From Octopus vulgaris (lineage: Eukaryota), in contig OX597835.1 in NCBI GenBank assembly GCA_951406725.2, positions 44,826,001 to 44,890,000 of the forward strand: DNA of 64,000 nt. Direction: 5' to 3'. This document shows, in pieces, positions 320 to 56,418 of this stretch (position 1 is the stretch's first letter; the number at the start of each line of letters is the position of its first letter). Both the position numbers and the translations under genes were made by a program. The notes under the pieces were generated by a model that worked only from the letters and a program-made list of their open reading frames with translations, was not told where the DNA came from and searched no databases.

Positions 320-512
320 TACGGAAATGTACTTGCATAGCAAGTGATTTGATCTGAGATCGTGTGCTGAAACGAAAACAATTGCAGCGTAGAAGGTGTT
401 TGTAAGCCATTTAAGAAACACACAAAAGCCATTCGATTCACTTCAACATTTAAGTTTAATTTGTCAAAATATTTTCGTCGCTTTAAGACCGCGGCCTATT
501 CACTGACAAAAA
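320..512 (-). mobile_element. ~190 bp hammerhead-bearing dispersed repeat (Penelope pLTR/retrozyme-like), copy 1
   Basis: Aligns by eye along its full length with 39018-39210. Both copies start at TACGGARATGTACTTGCATAGCAAGTG next to a dinucleotide microsatellite and end at CACTGACAAAA. Confidence 0.75.
460..510 (-). ncRNA. Minimal type I hammerhead ribozyme motif, G3.U8 variant (slightly decayed)
   Basis: Minus strand: UUUGUCA GUGAAUA G GCCGC ggucuuaaa GCGAC GAAA AUAU UU UGACAAA. Helix I is 7 bp, helix II has one mismatch, helix III is palindromic AAUAUU. Confidence 0.6.
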
Positions 513-522
513 TACAAAAAAG

Positions 523-1369
523 ACAGATGATACAAAAGAAGGACAAGAAAGAACACGGACGGGTCATTTGAGGTTTTATTTCTTCAGTCGAGTTCCAGAT
601 TATCTTTGCAATTTGGGCTGGTTTTATTCGAGATTGCTCCAATCTGGTCAGCCCCAAGGAAAAACTAACCTAAGAGCATTAGATTTCTTGGAAGAAAGCA
701 GCGAATGTTTACGAAAACAAGGAAGGGAAAAAACGTAGAAATGGTACACAAAGACAAATGCAAATAACAGGACATTAACAACAGGTGTCTTTCGACTAAA
801 GACGAATTAAATTAAGCTGGCGTGTGTGGAAATGAAGCCTAACGACAGAGACATAGGAGATGACAGGCATGGGGAGGAATATAGATGTTGCACGGATGGT
901 AGTCGAACTAAGAAAGAAAGGTCAGGCTTGGCCGAAACCGGTCATGTGGAGAGAGATGAGAGACGAAGAGGCAGAGGGTTGGAAGAATTAGGGAGGGATG
1001 AGAGAAAGAAAAAGGAGAGAGTGAAGTGAAAGAGGAAGGAAGATGGGAATGAAGAGGAAACCAGAAATTGTGAGCGAGGGGAACAAAAGAAAGGAGAGTG
1101 GAAAGAACGAAGTATGTTTGAAGGGCCTGATAGAAAGAAAGAAAGAAAGAAAAATGAAAGAATAAGAGAATCGTACAATATATATATATATATATATATA
1201 TATATATATATATATATATATATACACATACGTACTTACATATAAGAGACCAAAGTGTACGTACGTCAACATTTGAGCGAATTTGCAAAGATAATCTGGA
1301 ACTCGGGTTAGAAAGAAAACTTCGAATGACCCGTCCGTGTCTTTTCTTGTCCTCTTTTTTTATCGTCTG
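523..1369. repeat. Inverted ~90 bp arms (523-613 / 1280-1369) of an unclassified repeat flanking a purine-rich spacer
   Basis: TTGCAAAGATAATCTGGAACTCG...AATGACCCGTCCGTGT is present on + at ~1282-1340 and as reverse complement at ~553-611. Confidence 0.7.
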
Positions 1370-1869
1370 CCTTGATGTTTTGAGTTCTTGTCCCATGTTT
1401 AGTATTCCTTTTTATATATGTATGACGGCGCACGTACACGTTGAGATTTCTCTCTCTCTCTCTCTCTCTCTCTCTCTCTATCTATTTATCTACACACACA
1501 CACACACACACACACACACATATGTATATATATATATACGTGCGTTAAATGACTCACTATACAATGTGGTCCTGTGTTTATTGTGATACAATTAGTCGTT
1601 CAATTTTCTTCCATTATACAACTGTTATATTATTTTCATATGCAACGAGACGACAACAATAACGAGACATTATGAGCAAAATATTTGCCGTCCCAATGCA
1701 GGAAAATCGACTGAGGACGAAGAGCGGACGAAATGCTTTCGAATTTGTCAGTTAATGAATTTGGAACACTGGGTACACTACAGCAGATGAGGAAAAAACA
1801 TAGATAAAGCACAAGAAGGAGCCATTCCATGAAATATCAGTCCAATATGAACGTTTCATTTGAATTTAG

Positions 1870-2065
1870 ACAACTACGACAACTGCAACTACTACTACTA
1901 CTACTACTACTACTACTACTACTACTACTGATGAATATGATGATGATGATGAGGAGGAGGAGGATATAATGATAATAATATTGAAAATAATAATAATAAT
2001 AATAAAAAAAATAGTAGTAGTAGTAGTAATGATGATAACACAACGTAAGCAGCAACAGCAACGTC
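1870..2065. repeat. Compound trinucleotide microsatellite (ACT/GAT/AAT/AGT/AAC)
   Basis: Directly visible. Confidence 0.9.
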
Positions 2066-2569
2066 AACACATTATCGGATGTGAAAAGATATTATCATTT
2101 CAACCAGTTTCTTAATTACATAACCTAATTTAATTGCTTGATTAAAAGACGATAATCTTACCATGACAATCGCTATAATTATTTATTTATAATCTAAAAG
2201 GGTAAAAAAAACCCAAAAAAACATTAAACTATGTTACGAAATAAGGTTGCTGAAAATGAAGTTTTAGTATTTCTACATTTTCGGGAATGTGGAAAATGTA
2301 TTGCAAGTTTAGAACACGGAACTTTTTATTGAGAAGATTTCGATGAACAATTTCACTGAAATGCTTCAGCCGGAAGCACGATTTTATGGTAAATTACTGC
2401 TAATATACAACCTTGTTATAAGTGACGAGAAGTGAGGACAAGTGGAGATGCAGACATTCTGTTGATGTTTTGTGCATGATTTGTAGTGTGAAAACCAGAT
2501 AATAACATTTTAAACAAGCGAGAAACAAAGGCGCAACAGCGTGGAAGAAGCTAAATCTGCAGAGATAGA

Positions 2570-52860: not shown

Positions 52861-53454
52861 AATAAACAAAGGACATACAGCCTGTTTATGCGATCGATAA
52901 TATTTATATATTTATAATACGCAAAAACAAAAACAAAGACAAAAATAAATGCAAAAGCAACAAAATACAAAGGGACTACACAGGTTAAGATGTAAAAGGG
53001 AGGGCGTGTGACGTGTAGTGTGTTCTATAATTATATACATACATACATACATACATACAGGTATATACATATGTATATGTACATACACACACATATATAT
53101 GTATGTAAATATATATATATATATGTGTATATATATATATATATATATATATATATATATATATATATATATATATATATATATATTTACATACGTATAT
53201 ATGTGTATATATATATATATATATATATATATATATATATATATATATATGTATGTATGTATAGATAGATAGATAGATAGATAGATAGATAGATAGATAG
53301 ATATGTATAAGGTTAACGAAGTTAGAGGTTAAAATAACCATCTTAGAGACAGAAGTATACATTATACTATACGGGTATATTACCTATGCTTAACTATGGA
53401 CATATATATGCAAGCGTATTGTGCTCTTAAATTATAGGTAATTATCAAAAATCG

Positions 53455-53913
53455 AAATTTAAAGAAAACAGAAAATGGAGAATGAACAACAATTGACTTA
53501 CATAAATTATTATTTATTAATTCTATATAAATAGACTGCATCACATCTAACAGCTGTTCCTTCTTCCAGTGTTGTATGGTATGCTAAAAATATTTATATT
53601 TATTACTGAAACCGATTTGAAACATGGAGCTTCTTCAGAGGGAAGAATACATATAAAAAGAAGAGCCTTTTTCTTGTCTAGGGTCTTAGATTTTATTTAT
53701 TTTTCACTCTAATGAAGCTCCATGTTTCATATGGGTTTCATTACCAAATTTGGTAAATAGTTTTAGCATATAAATGGGAATGCCATACAACATCGAAGCA
53801 GAAACAGCTGTTAGATGGGATGCAGTCTATTTGTATTGAATTAATAAATAATAATTGATGTAAGTCAATTGTTGTTCATTAATATTTCTCCATTGTTTGC
53901 TTTCTTTAAATTT
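53455..53913. mobile_element. ~460 bp palindrome: two inverted Penelope-like terminal repeats with long-helix-II hammerheads
   Basis: 53455-53655 is the reverse complement of 53690-53913. Cores CUGAAGAAGCUCC (-) and CUAAUGAAGCUCC (+); both end G(A/G)AACAGCUGUUAGAUG. Confidence 0.8.
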
Positions 53914-55329
53914 ATATAGAAATATATATATATATATATATATATATATATACATATATGCACCCACCCACACACACACACATTTGCTTGTGTATACTCT
54001 ATTTTCATGAATAAACACGCACATACACTCACACGCATATAAATGCAAGCATATATGCGCACACAAATATGTGTATATATATGTGTATATATATGTGTAT
54101 ATATATATATATATATATATATATATATATATGTCGATATATATATATATGTATATCTATGTGTATACACATATATATATATGTGGTGTGTGAGTATATA
54201 TGTGTACCCGTGCGTGTGTGTATGTTTCTGTGTGTGTGCGCGTGAGTAAACATATATGTATGAGTAGCAACTACAATATAAATATTTTTCAGTTTGTTTA
54301 ATGATATAAAATTTACATAACCTCTAACATAAGGGTCGACTAATGAAAAATAAATACTTCCTCACCGACGAGTAAATACAGTCAAGGATCGCAATAAATA
54401 TTAACATTAACCGGATTTTAACAACGTGAAACTGTAAGATCTTTTAATAAGCGTTTTAATCTTAAAGTCTCCTCAATAACTGCCATTAGATTTCTCCACC
54501 TATTTATCATTGGGATTTTTATATTAATAAATATTTTCAGACGACAAATTAGATAAAATGTATTGATCGACCGTTTATTAGTTACATGTTAATTTTTATT
54601 ACGTGTATAGGCTTACATACATGGATACTCACTCAAATGCGTATATGTACACACCTATATGCATTTAAACACGTAAATATTTGTGTGCGCATGCGTATAT
54701 ATACACACACACACACATACACACACACATATATATATATACAAACATACACGTATATAGTATATTGACATGTATTTTGATATAGTTATATATATATATA
54801 TATATATATATATATATATAAGTATACATACATATATACATACATATCTATACATATATATACATATATATTCTACATGCATGTATATATATACACGTAT
54901 ATATATATGTATATATATATATATATATATATATGTATATACACACACACATTTATATGTGGATATATATATATATATATATATACATACATATATATAT
55001 ATAGATAGATAGATAGATAGATAGATAGATAGATAGATAGATATACATACATACACACACATACACACACATATATATATATATATAGTTTAAATATGTG
55101 CATTCCAAAATGTTAATATACCCTTGTATCTAATATATTTCACAAGGTAGATTTTGATTTAAGCACTTTAAATTATCCTCACTACATATTGCTAATGGGT
55201 TTGACATATTCAAATTGTTATGATTGCGTCGCGTCCGTTGCATAAGAAAACTTTCTGTCTGAAGTATAATATATTGGAAAGCGAAGAAGGAAATCTCATT
55301 CATTAATATCCGAATGTGTTTAATGATTT

Positions 55330-55500
55330 TATCGCTTACTTGTTTCGGTTATTTAACTGTGGCTATGATGAGGTAATGAGCTGAAGACTGTGGTCAAGCA
55401 AACTGACCCCTGTACTTAACTGTAATTTGATAATTATTTTATCGGTTGCATTTCCCGAGCAGATAAGTTCGGCGAATACAAAGAAACAAACTATCACACA
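55330..55500 (-). mobile_element. Decayed family A SINE 3' fragment
   Basis: TTACTTGTTTCGGTTATTTAACTGTGGCTATG..GACCCCTGTACTTA..TATCGGT. Confidence 0.55.
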
Positions 55501-56381
55501 CATATACCCCAACAGACACACACACATACACGTACTTACACACACATATTGTGTCAGGCTCCCTTCGGGGACTGGAAAACTTGAAGTAGCCCGGAACCGA
55601 ATCAAACTATTTTAAAACTCCCAATAAAATGTGTGGATTGTCCCATTACTTTCTTACGTTCACTCACACGCATATGTGCATATATATATATATATAAATA
55701 TACATATATATATATATATATATATATAAATATAAATATATATACATATGCGTGTGTATGTGTGCCTGTGTGTGTGTGTGTGTGTGTGTGTGTGCGTGTT
55801 TGTATATATATATACAAACACGCACACGCAAAGACACACACACACACGCACATACACACACACACACACACACACACACCCACACATGAAAATTGAACAA
55901 AGAGACGAACTCTCGAGATGTTCTTAACCCCTTTATATCTTGAATCCTCTTTTACGTATGTTTCGACGGATGCACTCCAAATTGTTCGGCAGGATGAATA
56001 AACGGTCAGCAATGCATCAATCACATCGGAAGGGATATAAATGACAAATTCATCAAACAGACATGTTAACAGGAACAGAAATGTCCTGTAAAACGTAAGG
56101 CATTTATATTCATGTGCACACACGCCAACACACGCTCAAATATGTGACCTGTAAATATACACATTACATACCTACAAAAATGCACAAAAATACGCACACT
56201 TATACATACACATATACATAGATACACATTAATATACATACAGATTCACAAAAATATAGTCGTATTATACATATACAAATATATATATATATATATATAT
56301 ATATATATATATATATATACATATATATAAGAAAAATAAAAACAGAAAATTCGCATAGTATAATTATAGTATAATTTTTAA

Positions 56382-56418
56382 TGTATCGACCGGTTTCGCA
56401 ATCGCTATTCATGATACA
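56382..56418 (-). ncRNA. Minimal type I hammerhead ribozyme motif, A3:U8 variant (intact)
   Basis: UGUAUC AUGAAUA GC gauu GC GAAA CCGG UC GAUACA. Helix I is a perfect 6 bp, helix III is palindromic ACCGGU, cleavage triplet is GUC. Confidence 0.75.

Follow-up and report, generated by a model that had tools for sequence, protein, structure and literature searches.

Hammerhead ribozyme motifs in the genome of Octopus vulgaris occur in families whose core positions 3 and 8 carry bases other than the canonical C and G: pairing of 3:8, not base identity, is what the families keep. The motifs that led to this result lie in a stretch of 64,000 nt (contig OX597835.1, positions 44,826,001 to 44,890,000; hereafter the window), taken from a microsatellite-rich genome of 2.8 Gb in 227 contigs (A+T 66%). 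The anatomy of the motifs, the swaps of the 3:8 pair at the level of whole families, and the link to Neptune-type genes for reverse transcriptase (RT) and GIY-YIG endonuclease (EN) can be read directly from the genome. The sequences are best described as Penelope-like 3' ends and retrozyme-like repeats with a swapped 3:8 pair, the master elements of which probably still self-cleave.

A first-pass annotation of the window saw at least five unrelated islands of type I hammerhead architecture. Five type I motifs with non-canonical cores are indeed present as claimed, but they represent only four families, since those at 460 and 39157 belong to the same one. I will refer to sites by the position of N3; the coordinates in that annotation were the lower edge of each motif. 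A dot marks a wobble or a mismatch.

39157..39207, minus strand: family A motif, core GUGAACA, G3:C8 (N3 at 39200, N8 at 39195), predicted cut after U17 at 39164
39017..39220, minus strand: family A element, ~210 nt
460..510, minus strand: second family A motif, decayed, core GUGAAUA, G3.U8 (N3 at 503), helix II damaged
318..516, minus strand: second family A element
56382..56418, minus strand: family B motif, core AUGAAUA, A3:U8 (N3 at 56412), predicted cut after C17 at 56388
56323..56460, minus strand: family B element, Neptune-type Penelope-like, 3' end, 5'-truncated
29897..29948, plus strand: family C motif, core UUGAUAA, U3:A8 (N3 at 29903), predicted cut after A17 at 29942
29815..30005, plus strand: family C element, Neptune-type, 3' end, 5'-truncated
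28316..28358, plus strand: family D motif, core UUGACGA, U3.G8 wobble (N3 at 28322), predicted cut after U17 at 28352
28279..28574, plus strand: family D partial unit, member of a ~360-nt tandem retrozyme-like group

The boxes of the type I hammerhead (U4 G5 A6, A9, G12 A13 A14, A15.1:U16.1 and H17) occur in order at 503, 28322, 29903, 39200 and 56412, each time with a short palindromic helix III. Helices I and II, with G10.1:C11.1, are present, helix I being weak in family C and helix II only 1–3 bp long in B and in two families considered below, E and F. The canonical identity of C3 and G8 (CUGANGA) is found in none of families A to D, whose states are G:C, A:U, U:A and U.G. A descriptor that left N3 and N8 free (helix I, N-UGA-N-N-A, helix II, GAAA, a 4-nt palindrome and UH) matched four of the five sites, compared with 0.02 ± 0.14 matches in 100 local dinucleotide shuffles; site 503, with its damaged helix II, escapes it. 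The annotation had also credited the window with all four Watson-Crick pairs at 3:8. It holds three intact non-canonical Watson-Crick cores and one broken canonical copy, and all four pairs are found intact only when the whole genome is considered. A scan of the window against Rfam gave no hammerhead family among the best 150 of 639 matches, a listing swamped by microsatellite matches, and the results of a repeat search were swamped by (TA)n. No RT or EN remnant of the studied families was found in the window itself.

The non-canonical cores are family traits, not decay, as is evident from the genome at large. Match totals given here are for the whole genome, and tallies of cores are counts by eye over the first 100 matches listed, which come from the first contigs. 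Short hammerheads were sought with the pattern N3-UGA-N-N8-A-G-(4-30 nt)-C-GAAAC-NN-GUH, with the backwards pattern as control; G10.1:C11.1 is imposed in the genome patterns, and this one leaves out family A and motifs with long stems. Matches with a base other than C at position 3 numbered 11,615, versus 997 for the control, and the 100 listed comprise 62 U:A, 15 A:U, 1 G:C, 8 U.G, 2 G.U and 12 mismatched cores. N8 tracks N3. Matches with C3 number 957 (control 268), with G8 in 74 of the 100 listed; those with A3 number 1,882 (control 312), with U8 in 83 of 100; and those with U3, obtained by subtraction, number 9,362 (control 386), with A8 in 62 of the 75 listed. Matches with G3 (371 versus 299) are dominated by chance, C8 being found in 45 of the 100 listed, among them a second G:C lineage (F). 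The excess of paired 3:8 combinations across the genome, a check that the annotation itself had named, is therefore large. Helix III is a perfect palindrome in 86 of the 100 non-C3 matches listed, a property the pattern did not demand, and helices I and II show covariation from one subfamily to another. In 14 rows that I chose by hand, and that are related to each other, 3:8 pairs in all 14 (Watson-Crick in 12), and the structure as a whole scores 0.60 for covariation, versus 0.14 when shuffled.

Family A provides the clearest G3:C8 state. Its motif at 39157 has a helix I of 7 bp, a helix II of 5 bp, an additional G after A9 and the palindrome AAUAUU as helix III, and the minimum free energy (MFE) fold shows helices I and II (z -2.56). 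The element has a sharp 5' edge ~24 nt before the core and is often found in head-to-head pairs. An exact pattern of 33 nt, with N3 and N8 free, has 1,168 matches in the genome and none in the control. Among the 100 listed are 95 G:C, 2 G.U, and one each of U.C, G.G and A.A, so the variant is a family-level state and not the remnant of a canonical consensus. The G.U at 503, which had been taken for a variant state of its own, I read as decay, because G.U occurs in only two of these 100 copies. No RT or EN open reading frame (ORF) belonging to family A was found upstream in 67 alignment matches, at loci L251-L253, or at 15 loci of an older relative, and the family would seem to be a non-autonomous derivative. 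The older relative (73–93% matches) has G3 with C8 at 6 of 15 loci, with N7 and loop II different. At four loci (L251, L252, L210 and L118) the head-to-head pair recurs inside a larger repeated or duplicated unit, which itself occurs in inverted copies ~2.8 kb apart. The 5' edge (39221-39212 in the window, and in other copies) carries a YAG resembling a splice acceptor ~15 nt before the core. It recalls the intron end beside helix I in Drosophila Penelope, and the edge is partly complementary to the 3' end of the element.

Families B and C lead to protein-coding elements. The family B motif has a helix I of 6 bp, a helix II of 2–3 bp and ACCGGU as helix III, and that of family C has a weak helix I of A and U, a helix II of 5 bp and ACAUGU. 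At the best-matching loci, picked by likeness to the window copy, the core is AUGAAUA (A:U) in 36 of 36 cases for B and UUGAUAA (U:A) in 32 of 32 for C. In long copies of B (L202, L201 and L203) a DKG motif, RT, a CxxC linker and GIY-YIG can be read in a broken ORF, the end of which lies ~300 nt short of the hammerhead motif, and RT/EN remnants lie upstream of C at L071, L085 and L065. The Pfam matches come from pieces of broken frames (RVT_1, E 1.9e-05; GIY-YIG, E 0.011) and fall short of the Pfam cut-offs; the DKG and GIY-YIG motifs were read by eye. U:A motifs (families C, E and H) and the G:C and A:U motifs of F are preceded, at 130–750 nt, by related RT/EN remnants (~45–70% identical). 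A CxxC linker resembling a zinc finger stands between RT and endonuclease at L202, L292, L294 and L296. Such a linker is described as a Neptune feature that is common to Nematis as well (PMC8557442; here and below, statements about published work refer to the portions of each source that were available). As the single motif behind the label, and one shared with Nematis, it points to B, C, E, F and H being Neptune-type.

All of the ORF-linked Neptune-type families sampled (B, C, E, F and H) are non-canonical at 3:8. B, E, F, C and H each come out as a group in the trees, one of which has 16 rows. No Neptune-type ORF was found upstream of short-class canonical families at 28 loci, which leaves no C:G member with which to root the Neptune tree. 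Two loci were set aside: L237, once considered a link from A:U to an ORF, has an endonuclease that groups with family E, and L331 is not homologous to the rest of the lineage F tree. The copies show 5' truncation, head-to-head or tandem arrangement and (TA)n flanks or other microsatellite targets, as expected of Penelope-like elements. With these remnants behind the families, and with the ~360-nt tandem units described next, the carriers proposed in the annotation, Penelope-like elements and retrozymes, are borne out. Its view of the families as separate is not: B, C and the other ORF-linked families form one Neptune-type group, and the count of swap events is about five.

Family D belongs to a group of tandem non-coding units, each with one hammerhead motif, with periods of 359, 360 and 362 nt; D-type copies on the same strand are spaced 357–358 nt apart. 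The group has C:G, U:A and U.G subfamilies. The motif in the window has a helix II of 4 bp and ACUAGU as helix III. The family is young, its copies being 97–99% identical. A pattern for its clade has 458 matches in the genome and none in the control, and the 100 listed divide into 47 U.G, 52 U:A and 1 A.A, with no C:G. The U.G is an amplified subfamily, not decay, and the reading of the site at 28316 as a genuine variant was correct. Contigs from four public runs, which carry three organism labels and whose origin in RNA is a guess, were aligned to a U:A unit: N7 is among the variable positions, and neither N3 nor N8 appears in the 40 rows listed of 49.

Close relatives with different pairs allow some of the swaps to be traced. 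Within the retrozyme-like group, C:G units and a U:A unit match at 87% identity, and family D, with U.G, matches a U:A unit at 85%. U:A appears on all three arms of the tree, the inner branch of which has a support of 45, so C:G may have been regained in this group, with U.G as an intermediate. Lineage F, with 29 copies, comprises 19 G:C, 9 A:U and 1 G.U. In a tree built without columns 3 and 8, seven of the nine A:U copies separate, with an ultrafast bootstrap (UFBoot) of 94, and the other two nest among the G:C copies. The U:A, A:U and G:C states of the Neptune-type families need at least two double changes, transversions included, and at least one further such change separates U:A from the usual C:G.

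Canonical motifs also occur, in and out of the window. Two sites in the window had been listed as canonical CUGANGA hammerheads, and neither is an intact one:

40127..40249, plus strand: broken copy of a canonical C3:G8 family, helix III and cleavage triplet missing
53486..53875, no strand assigned: inverted-repeat element resembling a MITE (miniature inverted-repeat transposable element), a single long imperfect inverted repeat with a self match of 78% over 390 bp

The first does come from a C3:G8 family, with a helix II of ~100 nt and, in other copies, a 6-nt palindrome; the copy in the window (40133) ends three bases after GAAA. The second site (53631, CUGAAGA) is no hammerhead, for it has no closing GAAA and UH and sits within the inverted-repeat element of ~390 bp. 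The order of type I boxes accordingly fails at 53638 and in the broken copy at 40133. In 97 evenly spaced stretches of 10 kb (970 kb in all), a relaxed descriptor gave nine matches, compared with 0.1 in 10 shuffles; seven were C:G and two G:C. Because seven of these nine matches in an unbiased sample are C:G, canonical motifs are common in the class with long stems and 6-nt palindromes. No U:A or A:U motif was found in the 970 kb under the descriptors used, when ~3–4 would be expected from the genome counts; clustering and the helix filters may explain their absence. The non-canonical share of hammerheads is large, not dominant. A distant Penelope-like clade (L343-L351, with an RT 22% identical to a Neptune-type query) is a young family with a canonical long-stem hammerhead. 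One of its members, L344, has an open stretch of 563 aa, and a U4C change in the core is found at three of the nine loci, apparently marking a subfamily.

Two larger sets of apparent variants were rejected. A supposed U3.U8/G17 family of ~1,100 matches, at first sight a counter-example, proved to be a canonical C3:G8 motif of another Penelope-like clade read out of register, within its long helix II. A long-stem non-C3 pattern (9,369 matches versus 1,698 in the control) captured mostly two abundant repeats that have no palindrome, together with canonical motifs shifted by 3 nt. Since that pattern is mostly artefact, the backwards control must under-count false matches. No G3/G17 family was found among the first 100 matches listed.

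What would maintain the pairing is probably slow cleavage after N17 in the master RNAs, assisted by dimer formation and by protein, and selected in vivo for unit-length or circular RNA. In a read-through transcript two motifs would fold as a dimer through the palindromic helix III, probably aided by a protein of the element. The 2'-OH of N8 is the general acid of the hammerhead. The 3:8 pair would position the ribose of N8, and the bases might change so long as the pairing stays. A cut after N17 would release unit-length or circular RNA, and RT would then place copies, 5'-truncated and often head-to-head, in (TA)n tracts, and these would decay neutrally. Selection on the master RNAs would keep single mismatches rare, leaving double swaps and one U.G wobble intermediate to found subfamilies. 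Parts of this scheme have precedents. Penelope-type motifs with an unstable helix III are reported to cleave weakly and as dimers (PMC4209133; PMC6765202). In one Penelope-like element, single C3G or G8C mutations abolish cleavage and the double mutant partly rescues it, a protein being needed (PMC11167929).

Several observations weigh against this proposal. Self-cleavage is a prediction from sequence, and no cleavage product, RNA end or circle was observed; the contigs from public runs cannot show RNA ends, and their head-to-tail joints also occur as tandem DNA. Only three of nine monomers had MFE folds with z below -1.5, and six were weaker than -1.3, no better than shuffles; MFE cofolding of dimers of families A and B gave no intermolecular helix III. 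Helix II is only 1–2 bp in some subfamilies, and the weak helix I of family C has been mentioned. The copies of family A are mostly head-to-head, so two motifs on the same strand are seldom adjacent, and its older relative is mostly without a palindromic helix III. With U.G amplified to nearly half of the listed clade copies, strict Watson-Crick pairing is not required. The independent swaps number about five, not thousands, the copies not being independent; at least two of them (C:G/U:A and G:C/A:U) are double transitions, favoured by mutation bias; and the branches among B, E and F, with UFBoot of 89 and 57, do not fix their order.

It is conceivable, if unlikely, that the hammerhead fold, 3:8 included, is kept as a structure (a binding site for RT and endonuclease, or a folding signal) and that cleavage in the cell is negligible. 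The same element in which the double mutant was studied gives this idea its best support, and to that extent speaks against selected cleavage: hammerhead mutants left insertion unaffected in vitro, the template was mainly uncleaved RNA, and RNA-seq showed no ends at the cut site (PMC11167929). Cleavage of minimal motifs in vitro is poor (PMC4209133), and the genomic copies found here cover the whole motif. On the other side, the C3:G8 pair is reported for the active, tertiary-stabilised conformation and is missing from ground-state minimal structures (PMC3884650), and families with very different helices and loops retain the catalytic boxes. The G3 families also avoid C17 (U17 in A, A17 in F, never C17), in agreement with an unpublished remark that G3:C8 works less well with C17, in a sample of two or three families.

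Less probable still is that the ribozymes are dead or relaxed and that drift at positions 3 and 8 in a few masters was followed by their amplification, transition bias mimicking pairing. The events are few, two kinds of swap are double transitions, the U.G subfamily was amplified, and copies with UUGACAA can derive from U.G copies by CpG decay; moreover, Naiad elements have spread without canonical hammerheads (PMC8557442). Drift does not readily give U:A, A:U and G:C within one Neptune-type group, however, for these require transversions at both positions. Among ~25 families with at least two copies, only one candidate is mismatched (L309, two copies, helix I lacking), the two large families that seemed mismatched being the register artefacts of canonical motifs described above, and N7 and the loops change while 3:8 stays paired. 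It is very improbable that a genome rich in A+T and in repeats has produced the motifs by chance or through a shift of register, and for families A–D this is ruled out by family, tree and position evidence: loose patterns do catch abundant repeats and shifted registers that the backwards control misses, but shuffled sequence yields almost none of the matches found in the window or the 970 kb, the motifs stand where known Penelope-like hammerheads stand, and no CUG is found in register before the variant cores.

Selected self-cleavage thus remains the preferred reading, and its setting is familiar. The minimal hammerheads of Penelope-like elements (PMC4209133) are likewise of type I and have a palindromic helix III; they stand in the 3' repeat, downstream of RT/GIY-YIG, in copies that are mostly truncated and also form inverted pairs, and like family A they have an extra nucleotide after A9. 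A U3:A8 core is recorded there for Schistosoma mansoni Penelope-like elements (~1,300 matches), and of the 56 representatives in Figure S3 of that study 53 are C:G, two U:A and one U.G, with none having G3 or A3. In contrast to that set, G3:C8 and A3:U8 are family states in the octopus elements. The tandem non-coding units of 357–362 nt, each with one type I hammerhead, are like the non-LTR (long terminal repeat) retrozymes of animals (PMC7229834; bioRxiv 10.64898/2026.07.22.740005), but the octopus group has C:G, U:A and U.G subfamilies and is known from DNA units. Covariation from C3:G8 to U3:A8 is known among natural core variants (Perreault et al. 2011, PMC3088659), with no G3:C8 or A3:U8 among the variants in the available text. 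The G3:C8 of the engineered C3G/G8C rescue (PMC11167929) is the same pair, made in the laboratory; the octopus pair is natural, with at least 1,168 exact family A copies in addition to lineage F.

Natural families with G3:C8 or A3:U8 did not appear in the available parts of PMC7229834, PMC7151607, PMC10085705 or PMC6155905, and the literature searched gave only engineered cases; Lünse, Weinberg and Breaker (2017), which lay outside that search, may list them. The main text of a cephalopod repeat annotation that may not concern this genome (PMC13282606) does not contain the word "ribozyme". Already known, then, are the fold, the carriers, U3:A8 and one U3.G8; apparently new are natural G:C and A:U cores in high copy and compensatory swaps that can be traced.

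The function of hammerheads in Penelope-like elements has been called unclear (PMC8557442). Repeated compensatory swaps of a pair that belongs to the active conformation are comparative evidence of selection on the catalytic fold. They also supply natural matched sets for bench work: C:G, U.G and U:A in retrozymes 85–87% identical, and G:C with A:U in lineage F. As the annotation foresaw, descriptors based on CUGANGA miss the class, which amounts here to roughly 10,000 motifs, and would label these elements ribozyme-free. Tentatively, one might go further: under selection for cleavage the 3:8 pairs may be freely interchangeable, with natural active G3:C8 and A3:U8 in thousands of copies, U.G as a living intermediate, and N17 co-adapting to avoid pairing with N3. 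Such avoidance is no general rule, since A17 is common among motifs with U3. Were the wider claim true, non-canonical cores would make up about a third to half of the hammerheads of this genome, counts of animal hammerheads would be broadly too low, and G3:C8 and A3:U8 would have been known until now only as laboratory rescues.

There are also some smaller observations. Loci L241 and L242 (G000:C1:7828096 and 7828216) are a single head-to-head insertion, the arms of which have U3:A8 and A3:U8 and a helix II common to both. Lineage F includes G3:C8 subfamilies (L254, L255 and L258) with a C.A mismatch beside G10.1:C11.1, helix II consisting of a single pair and a 6-nt linker. A comparison of L202, L248, L262, L243, L096 and L307 revealed a short pyrimidine motif, YCTCCCY, which in four retrozyme-like units follows the core by ~65 nt and in two Neptune-type families precedes it by 60–160 nt; it was not found in family A, H or one F copy, and it may be a common signal for the mobilising RT. 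Elsewhere in the window, a short piece of ORF at 9442-9840 (minus strand) ends in an RT-like DFVDDI motif and is probably the remnant of a long interspersed nuclear element, and positions 25400-26100 hold a long tandem tract of trinucleotide type with a period of 9–15 nt, one among many microsatellites.

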